Shown here: positions 11,831-49,305 of the stretch, in pieces
Layout: the number at the start of each line of letters is the position of its first letter
Numbering within the stretch: position 1 is the first letter of the stretch
Assembly (NCBI GenBank): GCA_963525085.1
Contig: CAURIH010000001.1
Span: forward strand, 758,521-822,520
Direction of reading: 5' to 3'
Length of the DNA: 64,000 nt
Source of the DNA: an uncultured Candidatus Saccharibacteria bacterium
Lineage (GTDB): Bacteria > Patescibacteriota > Saccharimonadia > Saccharimonadales > Saccharimonadaceae
Translations under genes and position numbers: made by a program
The notes under the pieces: generated by a model
What the model was told of the DNA's origin: nothing
What the model saw: only the letters and a program-made list of their open reading frames with translations
Databases searched by the model: none

Positions 11831-12637
11831 CTACCCCGCACAATACTCACCCAGCAGCCGTACAGTGTGGTCGCTTTGCTCAATGGTACGTAGGGCGTGC
11901 TTGAGTGGAGCACCAGCGCTGTCGACAACGAGGAAGAATTTGTATTGCCAGGGCTGGCCGACGATCGGTTGAGACTGTAGGCTGCTGATATTGATGCCTG
12001 CCGCGGCGAAGATGCGCAACACCTCGAGTAGTGCACCAGGCTGGTGATTGGTCGTGATGACGAGCGTGGCGCGGTTGGCATGGGCTGGTGCGTGGCCTGG
12101 AGCGAGAACGATGAAGCGGGTGATGTTATCGTGGCTATCTTGGATGCTACGGCGCAGGATGGGTAGGTGATGGAGAGTAGCAGTAGCCTGGCCAGCGATG
12201 GCGGCTTTGTGCGGGTCGCCAGCTGCTTTGATATAGGCAACCGCTCCCGCTGTATCGAAAAATTCATTCTGCACCGCATGCGGCAGCTCGGCAGCAAGAA
12301 AGCGCTGGCACTGCGCAAGTGCGACGGGATGCGAATACACCTCAGTAATATCAGCTAGGCGAGCGCCAGGTAGTGTAATGAGCATCTGCTCAATGGTAAG
12401 ACGTACCTCACCAATGATGGGTAGCGGGCATGTTTCGAGGTAGTGGTACGGCTCGTTGATTGTTCCGTAAAGCGTGTTCTCCACCGCCACAACGATACCT
12501 TCGGCTTGACCAGTCGCATGCGTGTGAAAAACATCGCGAAACGTCGTGCACGGTACGGTATTGACCTGCGGCCCAAACCACTGCTGCGCTGCCTGCTCAT
12601 GAAACGACCCTGCTTGACCTTGGATGGCAATATGCAT
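11831..12637 (-). CDS. pheA: prephenate dehydratase (PDT + ACT domains)
   Basis: 268 aa starting MHIAIQGQAGSFHEQAA, with ...NITRFIVL and a C-terminal ACT-like segment. TATACT (rc of 12644-12649) lies 6 nt upstream of the ATG. Confidence 0.85.
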   Translation of the reverse strand: MHIAIQGQAGSFHEQAAQQWFGPQVNTVPCTTFRDVFHTHATGQAEGIVVAVENTLYGTINEPYHYLETCPLPIIGEVRLTIEQMLITLPGARLADITEVYSHPVALAQCQRFLAAELPHAVQNEFFDTAGAVAYIKAAGDPHKAAIAGQATATLHHLPILRRSIQDSHDNITRFIVLAPGHAPAHANRATLVITTNHQPGALLEVLRIFAAAGINISSLQSQPIVGQPWQYKFFLVVDSAGAPLKHALRTIEQSDHTVRLLGEYCAG

Positions 12638-12729
12638 GAGATTAGTATAGCACGGGGTAGAAATAGCAGAGATTATTCAATCACTCTTAGCTTAGTATAG
12701 CGCATTTGCCTTTGCGTACAACACCATGC

Positions 12730-12950
12730 TATAATACCACACGAGTTTCCTCTTTTCGGGGTAGGGCGCTGGTGTGAGCGCACTGCCTGGCAGAGAAGGT
12801 ATAGACACGAGGCGGAGGTGCTGCTCCCAATCGTACACGCAAATATGCTGGGCAACAGCCCAGTAATCGGTATTCTATGCTGCTACACCACCAATTAGGT
12901 GAGTGGGACAGGCAGCAGAGTTACGAACTATAAGCAATAAGGAGAATTGC
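12730..12950 (+). promoter_or_regulatory. promoter (TATAAT 12730-12735) plus ~210-nt structured 5' leader of rpsL
   Basis: Long untranslated leader with several hairpins (GCGCT..AGCGC, CTGCC..GGCAG, GCTGGG..CCCAGT, TGCTGC..CACC..GGTG..GCAGCA). AAGGAG SD lies before the ATG at 12951. Confidence 0.4.
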
Positions 12951-13364
12951 ATGCCAACCATTAACCAATTGGTGCGCAAGCCACGCAAGACGGCGGCCCG
13001 GAAGTCGAAGTCGCCAGCGCTGGGGCGCATCCACAACGCACTCAAGGTGCGCTACTACGACCAAAATGCACCACTCAAGCGTGGTGTCTGCGTCAAGGTA
13101 ACAACCAAAACCCCCAAGAAGCCAAACTCCGCGATGCGTAAAGTGGCTCGTGTCCGCCTCACCAACGGCCACGAAGTCTGGGCATACATTGGCGGCGAAG
13201 GCCACAACCTACAGGAGCACGCTGTGGTGCTCGTCCGTGGTGGCCGTGTGCCGGATCTCCCGGGTGTGCGCTACCACATCGTCCGTGGTGCACTCGACCT
13301 GCAAGGGGTATCGAAGCGTAAGCAGGGCCGCAGCAAGTACGGTGCCAAGAAGGAGGGTAACTAA
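12951..13364 (+). CDS. rpsL: 30S ribosomal protein S12
   Basis: [13 protein letters not shown]...[17 protein letters not shown] trimmed the start from the ORF-track GTG at 12903 to the SD-preceded ATG. Confidence 0.97.
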
Positions 13365-13366
13365 CC

Positions 13367-13846
13367 ATGCCTCGTAAAGTCACGAAAAAACTCCAGCGCA
13401 CTATCAAGCCAGACCGCAAGTACCAGTCGGTGCTGGTGCAGCGCTTGATTAATAAATCGATGCTAGACGGCAAAAAACAAGTTGCTGAGCGGGCTGTCTA
13501 TAGTGCGCTCGAGCAGGCCGCCCGAAGCCTCAAGAGTGAGGACCCACTGGAAGTGTTTGAGACCTGCATCAAGAACATCAGTCCTAGCTTTGAAGTAAAG
13601 AGCCGCCGCGTTGGTGGTGCGAACTACCAGATTCCATTCCCCATTCAGGGTCATCGCCAGCAGCACTTTGCCTTTATGTGGCTAGTGCAGGCTGCCCGAT
13701 CGAAGAGTGGTATGCCATATAGCAAGCGCCTGGCAACAGAGATCGTTGATGCGTGCAACCAAACTGGTGTCGCCTTCAAGAAAAAGGAAGACACCCACAA
13801 GATGGCCGAGGCCAACCGCGCCTTTGCCCACTTTGCTCGCGGTTAA
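13367..13846 (+). CDS. rpsG: 30S ribosomal protein S7
   Basis: 159 aa with ...VGGANYQIPFPI...MAEANRAFAHFA. Starts immediately downstream of rpsL. Confidence 0.97.
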   Translation: MPRKVTKKLQRTIKPDRKYQSVLVQRLINKSMLDGKKQVAERAVYSALEQAARSLKSEDPLEVFETCIKNISPSFEVKSRRVGGANYQIPFPIQGHRQQHFAFMWLVQAARSKSGMPYSKRLATEIVDACNQTGVAFKKKEDTHKMAEANRAFAHFARG

Positions 13847-13865
13847 GTTCTGCAGTGCAATGTAC

Positions 13866-13903
13866 AAAACCGCCCGAGGTAGATGCCTTGGGCGGTTTTG
13901 TTA
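13866..13903 (+). terminator. intrinsic terminator directly after rpsG
   Basis: AAAACCGCCC-loop-GGGCGGTTTTGTT. Confidence 0.85.
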
Positions 13904-14463
13904 TTGCTGTATGGTGAGCGGCTGGAGGAGCGGATAATAACGGTGTATCAATCATCTTGCTTTGGTAGCTCTCAGTATTTAGGAAGTGCGTGAGTGGGGG
14001 GGGAGAATCTATACCTAAAACCTCAGGAGACATCGCGTGTGCCTCCGCGTGTTATTTTATTCAGCACTAGCTGTTGAGCCTCCGTATGCGAGGGATGAGC
14101 TTATCTATATCTATTTGTGGTTTATATTTTATCTCGGCCCACGTGTAGCGATAGAGGCAGGCAGAGCAATAAAATCTTGCTGGTGAAGGCGGAGAAGTGC
14201 GCAATCAAGACCTAAAATGCTTGCGAAAAATATATAATTATCGTCCAAATAGCCACCACTGGTACGACAGGGGTACATATGGGGAAAATAATGCGAAAAT
14301 AAGGCCAAAAATAGCTTTGCAGGCGCTGGTTTTGTGCTATAATGCAAGTTGATACGATTACTTACTACCACGCTGCCAGCGCCACAACGTACGCAGCAGG
14401 GAGGAATCGGCAGAAAGGAGCCAATGCCGTTAACCAAAATCATAGTGCGGAGTATAAACAACT

Positions 14464-15195
14464 ATGAGAGAGTATACCAACGATAATACAAGAGAAGAGT
14501 CGTTTGCTGAAAGCGACAAATCGCCAGTGGGCGAGACAAAATATTCAAAATACGACACAGCAAACGATGGAAATGGGCCGACAGCCGAAGAGTTTAGAGG
14601 TCGCTACGGCAAGCCGAATGCCCTTGAGCTGCCATCTGTTCAAGAGATTCGAGGTTTGCTGCAGCGTGAGCTTGGGCCGCTATTTGCGCTGTCGATGGCA
14701 GAAATGACAGACCAGCACATCGATACCATTCATAATAAATTATCCGAGCTGCGCGATAAGCTTGGCTTGGCAATTGGTGATATTATTGAGGTCAATGATG
14801 TCCCATATGTCGTGCTAATTGTTGACGGCTTTAAGAGCCCTAAGGACACTCAAGGCGATGTATCATCGCTGTATTCCGCAATTGAGTCGTCGCTATCCCA
14901 CCAAGAAGCGGCGATTTCTTTAGGCGAAGATAGTGGAGCGGAAGAAGGGGTAATCGGCTCATTGATTGGGTTTTATGTTGGGAAGCGCCCAGACCAAGAG
15001 ATGGTCGATAGTGCCCCTGTTGTGTATGGCATTATTCAGGGTGAGCCAGGCGAAGGCCCGCAGATGATCACAGATCAAGGTGATGTGCTTGATGGCGAGC
15101 TGAGCACTGCAAGTGGTATTGTGCTGGTTCCGACTACAGAGTCGCAACGGCTTGAGTATAGTTTGGTCCAAGGAGACTTCTCGCTCGCTGCATAA
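14464..15195 (+). CDS. hypothetical acidic protein
   Basis: 243-aa ORF, D/E-rich, no family recognised. Sits in lower-GC surroundings. No SD at its ATG; a 20-codon SD-led uORF (14424-14486) overlaps the start. Confidence 0.5.
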   Translation: MREYTNDNTREESFAESDKSPVGETKYSKYDTANDGNGPTAEEFRGRYGKPNALELPSVQEIRGLLQRELGPLFALSMAEMTDQHIDTIHNKLSELRDKLGLAIGDIIEVNDVPYVVLIVDGFKSPKDTQGDVSSLYSAIESSLSHQEAAISLGEDSGAEEGVIGSLIGFYVGKRPDQEMVDSAPVVYGIIQGEPGEGPQMITDQGDVLDGELSTASGIVLVPTTESQRLEYSLVQGDFSLAA

Positions 15196-15214
15196 AGGTT
15201 AGTTATAGACGAGA

Positions 15215-15245
15215 GAAAACCAGTGTGATGAGCACTGGTTTTTCT
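15215..15245 (+). terminator. intrinsic terminator
   Basis: AAAACCAGTG-tgatgag-CACTGGTTTTTCT. Confidence 0.85.
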
Positions 15246-18080
15246 GTACGAAAATCTATGGTGATTGCAAAGAATAAACAAGGGTATGTACTATGCCATT
15301 GAATTTTTAAGGATCGGCGTGTATTGGTTGGTGCAATGCGCTCGTTTTGGTAAGAAAATAATGTAATGTTTATATCACAAAGACATCTCTGTGCTATATG
15401 GATTCTCTTTGTGTATTATACATTGCTTGAGAGTGAGCAAGAGAATGTCTGAATATAACAAGAGTATATTCAGACTAGTAGATGGTAAATTAAGCGAGTA
15501 TAGATGCGCTCATGTACTATATATAGGGTATGGTGATGAGCATATTGCGTGCAGAGTGAGTCGATTACTTCATCGAATATGTCTTTTTTGTATATGATGC
15601 CACACATAACACAAGCAAAGAGGTAGTAAGAGAGCGTGAATAATGAAAGAATTCGTTCATGTAATCTATCGCTACTATATTGATGATAATTTGAGTGAGC
15701 ACGAAGTGAATTAGCTATTAGTGTGATATGAATTGAAATCTAAAAAGCAAAAATGAGAAAAGCGCAGAATATAGTGCAGAGCTACTAGTAGCTTTTTGTA
15801 GTAGCTGAGGTACTTTTGCAAAATGATTTACAAAAATATGAGTGAGCACTACATTATTAATAATTATTCTGTAGCAAAATATTATTTTTTGTCCGTTCTA
15901 ATTGGTGTGCGATGTATATGCTGCGATATTTTCGCATACAGAAAGAGTGATAGAAGTGTGCTATTGCAAAAAAATGATTTTTCAACGACTAGAGTAGCAA
16001 GCGGATACTACATACGTGACAAAAAATAATGACGCATTGCGACGCTGTAATAAAAAACGCTGATATACTATTTGTTATTGATAAAAAATTAGTGATGTCT
16101 AGCAAAAACGTTCGCGACTTTGCAACATAATGCGCGTGCAAAATATCTTTTTGCTACCATGTGAGTGATGAATGATATAAGAATGGTTTGTTTGGTAGTA
16201 AATATAAAATGAGTAAGATGACGGTGTGTACACCTGCGTGCAAATTTGTGAGTGAGCATGCAAAAATTGATATAGCTAGGTAGAAAAATAGAGGTGCGAC
16301 GTACAGTATGTGTGATAAAAATGAAATGCGTGTAGTAGCAGTGCAAATTTTCACATTTTTGATTAGGGAAATCTGCAAAAATGAATGTGAGGTCGTGAGA
16401 TGAAGTAGGGAGTGAGTTCGATTGAGTAAATGACTGTCTTGTTTTGGCTAAAATCTGTGCGGCGTGTGCAAATACAAGAGGCTTGAATGAGATGCAAGAA
16501 GCGAATTAAGTAATGGGCTGCCACGCTAAATTTCATGAACAGAATATAATGATATTCATAATAAAAATTTGAGAATGACATAACTCGGTCCGGCAAATTG
16601 GTGCAAAAATATAGCACTAAGAAGCAATGATGGTTCGTATGCGCCAAAATAATGTGATGATTTTGGTGAGGGGCACATGACATGCGAACTAGGTAGTGTG
16701 GTGGTTGATTGGTTTGTAAACAAAAATGGTATTTTTTGCCATGACGTGATGTAACGATGGAGTGCGTGACGAAAATTTTCTGCATCACGAGACATGATAG
16801 TGCACACTTGGGGTGAGGTGAGTGTATGAAAATATTAGAATAATATTCAACGATAGGCTTGAAAGCAAAATTTGCATAACTAAGCAGATGGATGCGATGA
16901 GGGTTAGAAATAGGAGGCATTGGTAAGCCAAAATATGCGGTAAGTACGAGTAACTTTATAGCCTAGAGGGTGCTTTGTGAGGTAATGGTGGTGGTTGGAT
17001 TTGCGTCTGCCTTGAATCAATGTGGCATAGTCACAAATTTTCATGATTGGTTGCATAATGCAAGGAAAGGATGGTTAATGGTGAGATAGACATAACCGAT
17101 ATAGTAAAGCATAAGTTGTATAGAGCTAGCTTAGCTGGCTAGGGCGAAGTTAAAAAATGGATGGAGCATCATGTATATAATCCAGAGAGTGAGCTAGTAT
17201 GGTGATATTTTCAGATTTTTGAGCGTGAGTGGCTAATTGTGTACTGAATGTGCGATAAACATAAGCATTGTATAGTGGTCATGGCTATTAAATACACACG
17301 ATTCAATAGGGTGCGATGTATGGCTTGTGCAGAAAATAATGACGCGCCATGGATGGTACGAATGAAGGTTTCAAAATTTTCACGTTTTGCACTATATAGT
17401 ACTTTATGGTATGAAAAAAGCAACAAAATATTGGGTGCAAATGTGCGATGTATGGAGGTGGAGCAGCTGGCTCTATATAAGTAGTGTGCAAAAATGAGAT
17501 CGACATAATGGCTCCATGGAGCGCTATAGATAGCTCTGACAAAAATGCACAAGGAGACAGCAAAATGATACTTCGCTTTATTCAGAAGCAATAGCGAAAT
17601 AAGCATAAGCGAAAACTGACTCGATAATTTTTGCAGATACATCGCAGCACTAAAAAAGCTAAAAAGGCGAGAGACTAGGTAGTATATACATGACAAGTAA
17701 GGACGGTTCATTTTTTCACATTTTGACATATAACGAGTATTATTTTCTAGATGTGATAGCGTTTAAAGGGTGCTCTGCTGAGCTTATATATAATATATGG
17801 GCATAATATATTAAGGACAGTGATGGGGCGAAGAAAGCAAATTTTAGCACTATAATGTAATTATCTTTTTTGTGAAATGTGGATAGAATATATGATTATA
17901 CTGTACTACTTCTTGGTCTATGGCAGGACAGATAAGTGCTTGCAAGACATGGCGCAACCATGCAGCGAATGAGGCGGCCAATAACTCATATTACGCAGTG
18001 CGTGTAGCTACTCAAAAATAGAAAAATTAAAAGTACAACACCTCCACACCCCTGTACCTCGCTAGACTTTGTATGCTGTC
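15246..18080. other. AT-rich, G>C-skewed ORF desert R1 (~2.8 kb) with recurring short motifs
   Basis: No protein-like ORF on either strand. Hand counts: 15661-15780 has 26 G / 12 C of 120 nt, and 16201-16320 has 32 G / 12 C. Exact TGCAAAAAT occurs at 16259, 16374, 16602 and 17487. Exact GAGTGAGC occurs at 15431, 15693, 15840, 16250 and 17187. Confidence 0.8.
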
Positions 18081-18160
18081 TCGCGTATAATATAATGCGT
18101 TATTAACCTAAGTTTATCGTCCGGATAAACATCCATATGGATTCCAAAGGAGGTTTACAT

Positions 18161-19871: not shown

Positions 19872-19943
19872 TGCCCTGAGAGCTCGTGAGAGCCGCTCTC
19901 ATCGCGTTTACATGCAAAAGTGTATACCGTAGGGATAGCACAC

Positions 19944-19972
19944 ATACACCGCGAAAAGCGGTGTATTTTTTG
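19944..19972 (+). terminator. intrinsic terminator after efp
   Basis: ATACACCGC-gaaaa-GCGGTGTATTTTTTG. Confidence 0.85.
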
Positions 19973-19974
19973 TG

Positions 19975-21620
19975 CCGTGTGATGTTTAGGTTGAAGTATC
20001 CTAGAGATGTGATAAAAACAACGTAGAGTAGAGACGATTTTTGGCCAATTTTAAGCACAAGCTTATGGGTGCGCTGTGTTTTTTACTAAAGGGTACGTGT
20101 GAGAAAAAGAGTATACATAATGTTGTAATAACCAACACATGAGGCTTACCGTCAAGCTCGATAACATCAAGATATTATTGTGGAGAATGCAACACAGCTC
20201 TCTGCGACGAGGATGATGCCAAAATATGCAGGGTATTGTAAAAAAGACAGAATAGAAACAGAGAATACCTAGCGAACGTTCGAAATATGATCGTCGTAGG
20301 AAGTACAGCAATCGGGCAAAACGATGATACAAGCACAACATGAAGCAATAGGCATAGTGATGTACGAACAACAGCAGGACAACCAGCAGGATATAGTTAT
20401 CACAACAACGATGTGGCAAGCTCAACGATTGCTTTGTGTGATGTGCAGCAAGAGCGAGTGACCTCACATGCTGGGTAAATACAACAACCATAAGCATAAA
20501 TGAACAAATTTTCGTTACAGACGCGTACTTACCTTTAGCAATATAATAACGCTTATGGCAATAGGGCATAATATAAAACGTACCAAAGTAAACATAAGTA
20601 TTTTAAAAATAATGAACACAATTTTTTGTTGTGTAGCTGCGAAGCTACGCGTTTGGTTTGAGCACGCTCACGTAAAAAATGCGGCTAGCAGCATGATGCA
20701 TGGAGCTGTTGCTGCGAGATAAAAAATGTGATCATTGTGCGGCGCGTCTATTTTTTGGGTTTGAGTATTTTTGATTTTGCTTTTTTTGTGCACGTTTGTT
20801 GTGGCTGGCTGGAGAGTGTTTCATTTTTGGTTTTTTGCAGGTTGGGCGAAACATAGCAAGGCGATATGCTGCTGCGAAGTATAGACTGCACGCACGAGTG
20901 GCTGATGATAAAAATAATCATCATTTGTAGAATTGTGCAAAAATGAAATGCTTGTTATTGCGGCTAGAATTGCTTATAGATGGCTCATACAAATTTTGCA
21001 AAACACGCATGAATGCAACATATCGCGCGATGCATATTGGCTTGTTTATGTGCTGCGAAGCTGCGAAATATACCATGTGGCATACACAAATACTCAGGCT
21101 TGGCTTGCAAAAATGTGATGCTGTCAAAATCAATTTTTTGTTCAGGCGAGTGGGCTCGCTATGCGAAGCATCTGCTGCAGTGGCGGCGTGTTTTTCTGTG
21201 CGTGGTGCTTGTGTGGCAAGATAAATGTGCAGCTCGTTGGTGATGTGGCGTAGTTATACGAGTGAGATATTTTGCTATCACGATGCCCACTCAATTTTTG
21301 TTATATATACTATATGTCTGACTGAGCTGTCTTGTGTCTTGAATATCCTGCTAGCTTCCAACGACATGTGCGAATGAAGAATAGCATGCTGCAGTGCGCG
21401 ATAGTTTGAGTGTCTTGTTAATGCAGGCTACTATAGCGTGCAAAGAATAAAGCGGATTTCTTCATCCTCAAAATTTGAAAAATGACAGAAGCAAGCAGTA
21501 TATCCGCGCGCAGCAGTCTCATTTAATCTCATCATTATCATGCTCTACAGCCTCATGCATTGTGTAAAAATGCAGCAGGCCTATTAGCTTCACACCAACT
21601 AACTATCTATCCACTCGTGC
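19975..21620. other. AT-rich ORF desert R2 (~1.65 kb) sharing motifs with R1
   Basis: No protein-like ORF. 20761-20880 has 36 G / 14 C of 120 nt. TGCAAAAAT occurs at 20936 and 21106. CTGCGAAG occurs at about 20637, 20871 and 21054. Confidence 0.75.
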
Positions 21621-47543: not shown

Positions 47544-48852
47544 ATTGGTGAGGACTGGAGTGTAGAGTACTAGCTATCTTATATTCTCTGCCGTCCTTGG
47601 CTGGGGGCTATAAGAGCTGCGGTGCTTAGAGTAGAATTTCTCATGTTGACGGGTGGTCTGGCAGGACTTTGCGGCAGATTTATGCCCCGCTGAAGACTGA
47701 GAGAGGAGGGTGGTACTGAGGAGTAGGTAAGACTCTGGCGCTAGAAGGCCGTTCATTAGTGGTATTTCGTTCACATCTCTTGTGTGTACGGACCTCTTAT
47801 GTCTCTGCTTTGTCTGTGGGGGGTAAAGCGTATCGCTTCATTAATCCTGCGATAAGGGAGCTGGCATGAGTATTATTGGCGCCGCTGAGGCTGTTGGTTG
47901 GCTAGATAGCTCAGAGCAAAGCCGTCTTGAGGCTGTAGCGCCATGAATGAGTGGCTCGTAGGGTTTATAGTGGCAATGCGAGTAGGGCACTCTGGTAGAT
48001 TTTACAGAGGCCAGCTTATCAAAATACATGTTATGCTACAAAAATATCAAAATACAAATGAGAATTATGTGTGCATTATATCACCAAACGAATATGATGC
48101 GCAGCAAAATGACCATAGGTAATGTGGATAACTAGCAGTGTGATGTGGATGAATAATAGGCAAGAAACCACAGCTATGCCTGCTAGGTGGTGCTGTGAGG
48201 AGGGTGGGGTGCTCAAAGAAGTGGTGGCATGCCAGGTTTCTTTATACTGCTTAGGATACGATAGTCTGGAGCGGGCGAACTCGTGATAGTTTAGTGACAG
48301 GATGTATGAGTGATGTGAATATATACACCAAATTTTCATTTGTTGGCGCTGGTTTTTGCTGCTTCATTCGTAGAGATAATGGGGAGGAGTATACAGATAG
48401 TGTGTAATATTGATAAGCATATGCTTTATATTGCATAGTTGATGCGTGAATTTGATGATGGTGTGAGCGATTTCTTGGGCTAGGCAGGTGGTCTGGGTGA
48501 GTATGGCGCAGCGTGTGAATCTGCGTATGTTTTGTTCATAACAAACTAGCAAATAGGTTGCAAAACAGCTCATCGTTTTGCTTGTAATATGCAAGTGACA
48601 CGATAGGCTGAGAGGTTACAGTCATGGTTGAGCGCGACGGCACCAAGGCGCTTGTGAGCGAAGGATAGGTGGCGACAAGAAGACGCTATTATGTGAATAT
48701 TTTTTGTTATAATTCATACAATGTGAATTTGTGGGAGTGCGGCAGGTAGGCTCATGAGGAAAAGTAGCGATGCCAAGCAGGGTACATCACTTGCAATTTG
48801 CAACTAAAATATAGTATATGTTTTTACTATGCATCAATTTTTGTGAGAGGTT
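47544..48852. other. ORF desert R3 (~1.3 kb), AT-rich in its right two-thirds
   Basis: No protein-like ORF. Contains the 17-mer CTGAGAGAGGAGGGTGG (47697-47713), identical to 842-858. G>C skew is weaker than in R1 (48301-48360 has 14 G / 7 C). Confidence 0.65.
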
Positions 48853-49305
48853 CTACCTCTGTATACCCATGGTGTTGTGGTAGTAGTCGACAAAGGTGCC
48901 AGTTTTTGCGGCAAGCATGATTTCTTGTTTAAGCAAATCTTTTTCGTGGGCGATGGTGGTGCGATAGTCGTCGCTCACGGCAGCGTGCGGGTCGGCGCAG
49001 GCTCCCCAAAAGAGCAGTTCGACGAGCAGCGGCAAGAGCTGCCAGCTGCTGTCTGTTGGGCTGTAAATGTATTGATTGCCTTGGAGTGGATCGCGCTGCT
49101 TATCAAGCAAGCCAGCCGATTCTAACCGCGCCAAGCGATCTGCCAAAATATTGCTGGCAATGCGCTCATCGCGTGCGAATTCGCGGAAGTAGCAGCGCCC
49201 AAAGAGCAGCACATCGCGCATGATGAGGAGTGTCCATTTGTCGCCAAAAAGGTCGAGGCTGTAGCTAATGGGGCAGGCTGAGCGTTTGTGAGCTGTTCGT
49301 GTCAT
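48853..49305 (-). CDS. HxlR family transcriptional regulator
   Basis: CPISYSLDLFGDKWTLLIMRDVLLFGRCYFREF is the HxlR wHTH signature. 150 aa. Confidence 0.85.
   Translation of the reverse strand: MTRTAHKRSACPISYSLDLFGDKWTLLIMRDVLLFGRCYFREFARDERIASNILADRLARLESAGLLDKQRDPLQGNQYIYSPTDSSWQLLPLLVELLFWGACADPHAAVSDDYRTTIAHEKDLLKQEIMLAAKTGTFVDYYHNTMGIQR

Follow-up and report, generated by a model that had tools for sequence, protein, structure and literature searches.

A 2.8-kb gene-free block upstream of rpsF in a Saccharibacteria genome is best explained as an old, neutrally evolving relic at mutational equilibrium

Why should a Saccharibacteria genome (TM7, candidate phyla radiation, CPR) of only ~1 Mb carry almost 3 kb of DNA that encodes no recognizable protein? 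The block in question, R1, lies in a 64,000-nt stretch of contig CAURIH010000001.1 (positions 758,521 to 822,520; hereafter the window, in whose coordinates all positions are given), between a gene for a hypothetical protein, hyp243, and rpsF, the gene for ribosomal protein S6. The initial annotation, made from the sequence alone, described the block as a desert of open reading frames (ORFs) at 15246-18080 and offered three explanations: long non-coding transcripts, an array of protein-binding sites, or heavily decayed repeat or foreign DNA. Based on comparative analysis, we consider it probable that R1 is old DNA that is nonfunctional, or functional at most in a sequence-independent way: a neutrally evolving fossil that has reached mutational equilibrium.

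Over 15246-18080 the window sequence contains 960 A, 370 C, 677 G, and 828 T, giving a mean guanine-plus-cytosine content (GC) of 0.369, a G:C ratio of 1.83, and a GC skew of +0.29. In 300-nt windows GC ranges from 0.317 to 0.403 and the skew from +0.20 to +0.46, so that the excess of G over C on the plus strand, as originally described, is present in every window. The GC of "about 32%" given earlier corresponds to the local minimum and not to the mean, while the AT-richness itself is confirmed, as is the contrast with the genes beside R1 (GC 0.47-0.56; flanks ~0.54); R1 falls 17 points under the genome average. To place the block in an evolutionary context, the interval from S12 to TlyA was aligned between the window and 26 other species of the genus (27 species in all, to which the species counts below refer). 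R1 occupies the same position in 27 of 27, at a length of 2793-2850 nt (within ~2%), a GC of 0.363-0.382, and a skew of 0.28-0.35. In addition, 18 independent contigs of the same species, from different samples, carry the sequence at 99.7-100% identity. Since the same structure recurs in these contigs and in the assemblies of the 26 other species, R1 is not a misassembly, which was one of the checks called for at the outset.

R1 is non-coding. Stop codons of all three kinds, TAA, TAG, and TGA, are common in every one of the six frames (each 18-34 times per plus frame and 7-17 times per minus frame); no single stop reassignment opens a frame, and an alternative genetic code was rejected. Six-frame translations of R1 gave no match to Pfam at E ≤ 1, and no mobility gene; the desert of ORFs is real. 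Across R1 and a second desert, R2, variability in the 27-species alignment is flat over the three codon phases in every 300-nt window, whereas the flanking genes show 0.00/0.00/0.12-0.17 at codon positions 1/2/3. No open frame of at least 25 codons in R1 is intact in all 27 species; the best-preserved small frame, of 25 codons, is intact in 21. Gene callers do predict two proteins on the minus strand of R1, of 185 aa (16363..16920) and 172 aa (17211..17729), and one of 168 aa on the minus strand of R2 (20063..20569), and all three are annotated as protein genes in public assemblies. Neither R1 ORF matches Pfam, and each is intact in one of the 27 species, which in both cases is the window's own; the 185-aa frame contains 1-6 internal stops elsewhere, and the 168-aa frame is intact in two species. 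The minus strand is poor in G, and stop codons are therefore rarer there (0.055 expected per codon in R1, against 0.081 on the plus strand), which accounts for the spurious ORFs. All three are annotation artefacts of C-poor DNA, in keeping with the earlier description of the two in R1 as nonsense. Homology to protein genes was also sought in all frames by other routes, and nothing was found: tblastn with all ORFs of at least 100 aa from 49 distant loci returned noise only, and neither the accessory proteins found next to S7 in four lineages nor their EF-G matched R1. The proposal that R1 has real coding capacity, through an alternative code or several small proteins, can point to the gene-caller predictions; given the frequency of every stop in each frame, the lack of codon periodicity, the commonness of 1- and 2-bp indels, and the poor survival of long and small frames alike, we regard it as extremely improbable.

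To determine how fast R1 changes, we compared its nucleotide diversity (pi) with that of silent sites. Pi is 0.165 in R1, 0.165 across the 787 4-fold degenerate positions in ten flanking genes, and 0.134 in R2; R1 thus evolves at the neutral rate. G/C sites are more variable than A/T sites in R1, and the 4-fold sites are richer in G/C; when the per-base pi of R1 is applied to the 4-fold composition, ~0.20 is expected. Corrected for composition, R1 if anything evolves at least as fast as silent sites. The comparison with syntenic regions that was proposed initially therefore has a two-part outcome, in which the desert is conserved in position and length across the genus, while its sequence varies at the neutral rate.

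The base composition of R1 was then compared with that expected from mutation. Singletons at the 4-fold sites comprise 69 GC>AT and 23 AT>GC changes, which imply an equilibrium GC of 0.39, though GC at these sites (GC4) is 0.65. In R1 the two classes number 116 and 136, and the implied equilibrium of 0.41 is close to the 0.37 observed. A substitution matrix obtained by parsimony, whose event counts are inflated by recombination, predicts for R1 a GC of 0.36, an AT skew of +0.09, and a GC skew of +0.19, compared with 0.37, +0.08, and +0.35 in the R1 consensus; for R2 it predicts a GC of 0.38 and a GC skew of +0.12, compared with 0.42 and +0.15 observed. The GC of R1 is thus at mutational equilibrium (0.37 versus a predicted 0.36-0.41). 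Unconstrained DNA in this genome is therefore expected to be this AT-rich and to have at least half of the G>C skew.

If the sequence drifts freely, the constancy of its length requires comment. R1 contains 110 indel intervals, mostly of 1-2 bp, of which 69 are deletion-like and 41 insertion-like; their summed sizes are ~225 bp and ~54 bp, respectively, a net loss of ~6% of the length over the tree. This tree spans between ~0.55 (from variable columns) and 1.9 (from parsimony) substitutions per site, whereas we calculate a half-life of such DNA under small indels on the order of 6-20 substitutions per site. Small-indel loss is therefore slow enough that the constant length of R1 within the genus needs no selection. 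Furthermore, this half-life far exceeds the time taken to erase homology, so that a relic can be scrambled long before it is deleted.

Regarding what R1 may once have been, indirect evidence comes from the gene order around it. In this genus and in locus L037, which represents a sister genus, S12-S7 (12951-13846 in the window) is split from rpoBC and fusA, while other lineages keep the order rpoB-rpoC-S12-S7-fusA, and the S7-rpsF junction is specific to this genus and L037; no EF-G gene is present within the 64-kb window. Where the canonical order is kept, S7 is followed by fusA either immediately (TM7 oral taxon 348) or after 1-6 genes for hypothetical proteins or ABC transporters. This post-S7 slot holds unrelated, lineage-specific genes in four other lineages, and its inserts are mostly unrelated from one lineage to the next; only the first post-S7 gene is shared, between L088 and L090, at 45% identity. 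The site upstream of rpsF likewise gains and loses genes in another genus. Since the slot has such rapid gene turnover, R1 is most likely eroded cargo of this kind. That R1 descends from a gene or genes we infer from synteny and analogy; the searches made pointed to no particular ancestor gene.

The second desert, R2 (19872..21616, unstranded; GC 0.41, skew +0.14), provides the clearer syntenic case. It fills the slot between efp and tlyA and measures 1606-1622 nt in the 27 species. In 25 distant Saccharibacteria loci the same gap, of 1.5-1.94 kb (mostly 1.72-1.94), holds an ORF of 456-605 aa; the one copy scanned, a plus-strand gene of 587 aa in L046, matches PG_binding_4 and Beta-lactamase2. 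In the window the gap is of similar size (1.745 kb), ORF-free, and low in GC. Thus the twin desert has a syntenic gene in other lineages. Shorter ORF-free, low-GC gaps occur in L037 (760 nt) and in L039, L041, and L050 (~447 nt), and other lineages have 0-12 nt; ordered in this way, the gaps read as what may be a decay series. R2 was rejected as a recognizable pseudogene: a hidden Markov model (HMM) of the 25 slot orthologues found no match in R2 of any species, in the L037 and L039 gaps, or in the rest of the window. One further observation concerns the two deserts together: at locus L010, identity to the window is 98.8% in R2 but 86% in R1, a contrast that indicates recombination between species of the genus.

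L037, whose EF-P is 88% identical, has the same layout of S12, S7, a hypothetical gene, a desert, and S6. Its desert has a GC of 0.30-0.33 and a skew of up to +0.42, and no DNA similarity to R1 was detectable. In L037 each of the two deserts has 0.44 times the length of its counterpart in the window, and this equal ratio at the two sites is what uniform neutral shrinkage would give. A third region of the window, R3 (47884-48988, upstream of tRNA-Val), has a GC of 0.44, a GC skew of +0.31, and no long ORF; it is probably a relic of the same kind.

We propose the following course of events. One or more lineage-specific genes between rpsG (S7)/hyp243 and rpsF would have been inactivated, after which AT-biased, strand-asymmetric mutation may have pulled the dead sequence from ~54% GC to ~37-40%, with G in excess of C. 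Base substitutions would have wiped out homology while small indels broke all frames, and the slow net loss by small deletions would have kept the block almost as long as it was at first in every species of the genus. A/T tracts, which mutate least, would accumulate in such DNA and persist as A-rich words.

This last step bears on the short motifs that drew attention to the locus. TGCAAAAAT occurs in R1 at 16259, 16374, 16602, and 17487, with a minus-strand copy at 17627, and elsewhere in the window in R2 (20936 and 21106) and once within a gene (25495); GAGTGAGC occurs in R1 at 15431, 15693, 15840, 16250, and 17187. The motif coordinates given by the initial annotation were exact throughout. 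Against 1000 dinucleotide-preserving local shuffles of R1, the observed count of neither word was reached in any trial. However, once all words are allowed for, some 9-mer reaches four copies in 2.1% of shuffles and some 8-mer five copies in 3.4%; R1 contains three independent 9-mers with four copies. The words are thus truly enriched, but only modestly, at about the 2% level. The enrichment could reflect an array of TGCAAAAAT-like A-tract sites bound by a nucleoid-associated or regulatory protein, a specific form of the array of protein-binding sites first suggested: the word has four copies in R1 and two in R2, its instances have a pi of 0.05 versus an R1 mean of 0.17, and GTGCAAA sites from 16136 to 16601 lie ~102-135 nt apart. 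On the other hand, A/T tracts are conserved in general, with runs of at least 4 having a pi of 0.07 versus 0.14-0.15 for all A/T sites, and the variability of A/T sites climbs smoothly with the number of G/C neighbors in R1 and R2 alike. This dependence looks like a context-dependent mutation effect, which lets A-rich words accumulate and persist, and not like site-specific selection. Moreover, GAGTGAGC shows no conservation at its instances (pi 0.20), both motifs are missing from R3 and the L037 deserts, R1 has just two DnaA-box-like matches, and it shows no regular repeat units, in that no tandem repeat was found and self-alignment did not exceed that of shuffles. The short A-rich motifs are thus largely a by-product of the low mutability of A/T tracts, and we consider a binding-site array distinctly improbable. 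As an origin of replication R1 was also rejected, given only the two loose DnaA-box matches and a cumulative GC skew that makes no turn here.

An origin as horizontally acquired, AT-rich foreign DNA, such as the remnant of a genomic island, prophage, or plasmid, would fit the 17-point deficit in GC, the position next to a hypervariable gene and spacer, and the lineage-specific cargo that the slot holds in relatives. It accords poorly with a block that keeps its place, length, and GC in 27 of 27 species and has a counterpart in the sister genus, and with a GC that equals the host mutational equilibrium, GC>AT and AT>GC changes being in balance. Searches against 50,697 phage and 72,556 plasmid records gave no match to R1, nor did any frame hold a mobility gene or Pfam domain; the recent mobile insertion that had been raised as a possibility is contradicted by these results. 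A foreign origin is very unlikely, and any such origin would have to be ancient and no longer distinguishable from a decayed resident gene. A decayed repeat was rejected separately: the best self-alignment of R1 scores 15, against a shuffled mean of 15.5, and Tandem Repeats Finder, a repeat search, and self-BLAST against Markov shuffles yielded nothing beyond chance. Likewise rejected were silent cassettes for hyp243, to which R1 has no similarity, and a paralogous relation to R2 or R3 or a homologous one to the desert of the sister genus, for which nhmmer returned only one borderline 90-nt match between R1 and R2 (E 0.045). Of the suggestion of "heavily decayed repeat or foreign DNA," it is the decay that is favored, by the neutral rate, frame-breaking indels, and equilibrium GC; the DNA is neither repetitive nor recognizably foreign or recent.

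A further alternative is that R1 is transcribed as a long, C-poor non-coding RNA (ncRNA), or that it serves next to rpsF-ssb-rpsR-efp as a spacer or insulator whose action depends on length; length and composition would then matter, but not exact sequence. This would account for the length within ~2% in 27 species, for deserts on both sides of the same gene cluster in two genera, and for a skew above the matrix prediction with an excess of new C singletons, as if these were later removed; a C-poor, G-rich transcript would be a poor substrate for Rho. Yet the substitution rate equals that of 4-fold sites; R1 has no match in Rfam, either at the gathering score or at E ≤ 1; and promoter-like sites are not enriched (19 found versus 18.4 expected). 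A sliding consensus-fold scan of the alignment singled out the hyp243 terminator and a palindrome at 15447-15475, and past ~15600, that is, beyond the first ~350 nt, no window stood out (z at best ~-3.9). At both sites the desert of the sister genus is less than half as long, which speaks against any need for a set length, and length constancy within the genus is predicted by the low indel load that we measured. Among indexed sequencing runs that hold the sequence, none has an RNA library record; those labelled 'RNA?' without a library record show no excess depth for tmRNA or RNase P RNA and so behave like DNA. Taken together, the long non-coding transcripts proposed initially receive no backing from Rfam, structure, or conservation, which is not above neutral, and we judge an ncRNA or spacer role unlikely. 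Somewhat less probable still is the proposition that selection keeps the deserts flanking rpsF-ssb-rpsR-efp for a sequence-independent property, for which C-poor, Rho-resistant ncRNA transcription and an AT-rich spacer serving to insulate or position these highly expressed genes are candidates. If true, it would explain both the extra C depletion and the presence of deserts at both sites in two genera.

Several observations weigh against our preferred reading of R1 as a neutral relic. The GC skew of R1 (window +0.29, consensus +0.35) exceeds the +0.19 of the matrix, although the bootstrap confidence interval from singletons is broad (-0.06 to +0.40). C is currently being gained in R1 (58 singleton changes in versus 36 out), so some of the shortage of C either dates from the past or is under weak selection. 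Conservation along R1 is patchy, the variance of pi between windows being 3-5 times that obtained with shuffles; TGCAAAAAT is more conserved than other 9-mers that contain A5 (P ~0.014); and one palindrome inside R1 is conserved. No deletion longer than 34 bp is seen in R1 among the 27 species. Finally, residual similarity to a functional gene is absent from R1 and R2 by every route taken (six-frame Pfam, tblastn, EF-G, R2-family HMM); this is expected if erosion is complete, yet it leaves the origin of R1 unproven. The excess skew, the palindrome, and the patchy conservation leave the ideas of a long ncRNA and a binding array with a small residual probability, but neither is supported.

The palindrome (15447..15475, unstranded), with 11-bp arms in the arrangement GTCTGAATATA-N7-TATATTCAGAC, is the sole clearly conserved structure inside R1. 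Its arms are nearly invariant in the 27 species, while loop and flanks vary, and no compensatory changes were seen among them. Consensus folding gives a z of -16 for the minus strand and -9.7 for the plus strand, with folds of -12.4 and -13.3 kcal/mol. The element lies 250 nt into the desert, and on the minus strand the scan flags it as resembling a terminator, directed toward the 3' end of hyp243; from this arrangement, it might block antisense transcription into hyp243.

The order of genes around R1 is FtsK, prephenate dehydratase (PDT, minus strand), S12, S7, a 617-nt spacer, hyp243, R1, S6, SSB, S18, EF-P, R2, and TlyA, and the GTDB species representatives with near-identical EF-P are all labelled Saccharibacteria. 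We place the neutrally evolving, non-coding probable relic, to which no strand is assigned, at 15246..18040. Its left boundary is the plus-strand intrinsic-terminator hairpin at the end of hyp243 (15215..15245; -17.3 kcal/mol, z -5.2), which reaches a consensus-fold z of -19.8 in the alignment window 15200-15303. On the right it is bounded by the rpsF promoter and 5' leader (18041..18160, plus strand), with a promoter-like TAGACT-17-TATAAT at 18063-18091; columns 18081-18160 of the leader are 99% identical between species. Just inside this boundary lies a hypervariable stretch (17880..18000, unstranded) with a mean pairwise identity of 0.66-0.67 in 40-nt windows, and the peak pi of R1, 0.41-0.45, falls at ~17940-17975.

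On the other side of R1, hyp243 (14464..15195, plus strand) belongs to no Pfam family; it evolves fast and is the only gene that survives between S7 and S6. Its homologues with at least 84% identity are confined to the genus, and for this reason an attempt to trace the ancestor of R1 through them failed. It is 33% identical both to a 248-aa protein of L037 (hyp248) and to an alternative allele in L012. Within the genus two allelic types share 33% amino acid identity, while S12, S7, S6, and S18 are ~100% identical; the terminator also exists as two sequence types, which match the two alleles. The spacer before the gene (13847-14463) has a mean pairwise identity of 0.535 with 29% gaps. These patterns suggest that hyp243 may be a diversifying or repeatedly replaced gene. 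Profile-profile comparison of hyp243 homologues with the hypothetical proteins downstream of S7 in other lineages was negative (probability 0.1%). Farther upstream, the gap between PDT and S12 is ~310 nt in the window (12637-12951) and ~1.75-1.8 kb in L007, L014, L016, L019, L021, L026, L027, L030, and L035, which hold ~1.4 kb extra.

Rickettsia prowazekii reportedly has ~24% non-coding DNA, read as degraded gene remnants, and Mycobacterium leprae is likewise said to carry pseudogenes, in accounts attributed to Andersson & Andersson and to Cole et al. R1 resembles such relics in being ORF-free, as is R2, which lies where relatives have a gene; in having a GC under that of coding DNA; and in its neutral evolution, small frame-breaking indels, deletion bias, and long persistence in a small, host-dependent genome. 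Many of those relics are still recognizable, whereas the erosion of R1 is complete, with no detectable homology. R1 also differs in its host, a GC-rich (54%) member of the Saccharibacteria/CPR, a group usually described as tightly packed, and in its unusually large compositional gap, with a 4-fold GC of 0.65 versus a relic GC of 0.37. Large RNAs such as OLE, GOLLD, ROOL, HEARO, and raiA similarly come from ORF-free regions of kilobase scale in bacteria whose genomes are small or unusual; these have conserved blocks, covarying helices, and Rfam models, unlike R1, with no Rfam match at E ≤ 1, a neutral rate, and one hairpin only. The AT-rich islands bound by xenogeneic silencers share with R1 a low GC in a higher-GC genome and a place beside a variable gene, but R1 has no genes, no variable presence, a composition at resident equilibrium, and no donor signature. 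A full-text literature search found no account of such deserts in Saccharibacteria. The best explanation is that R1 represents, in Saccharibacteria, the kind of 'junk DNA' that has long been known in Rickettsia and M. leprae.

As such, R1 provides an internal read-out of the neutral mutation spectrum in an uncultivated genus of Saccharibacteria, with an equilibrium GC of ~0.37-0.41. The gap between a 4-fold GC of 0.65 and an equilibrium of 0.39 implies that a strong non-mutational force, either codon selection or biased gene conversion, keeps synonymous GC high. Three annotated 'hypothetical proteins' in public assemblies are exposed as spurious antisense ORFs. More generally, because loss by small indels is slow, a CPR genome of ~1 Mb can carry kilobases of dead DNA over the long term, which tempers the view of CPR genomes as uniformly streamlined and indicates ongoing gene loss.

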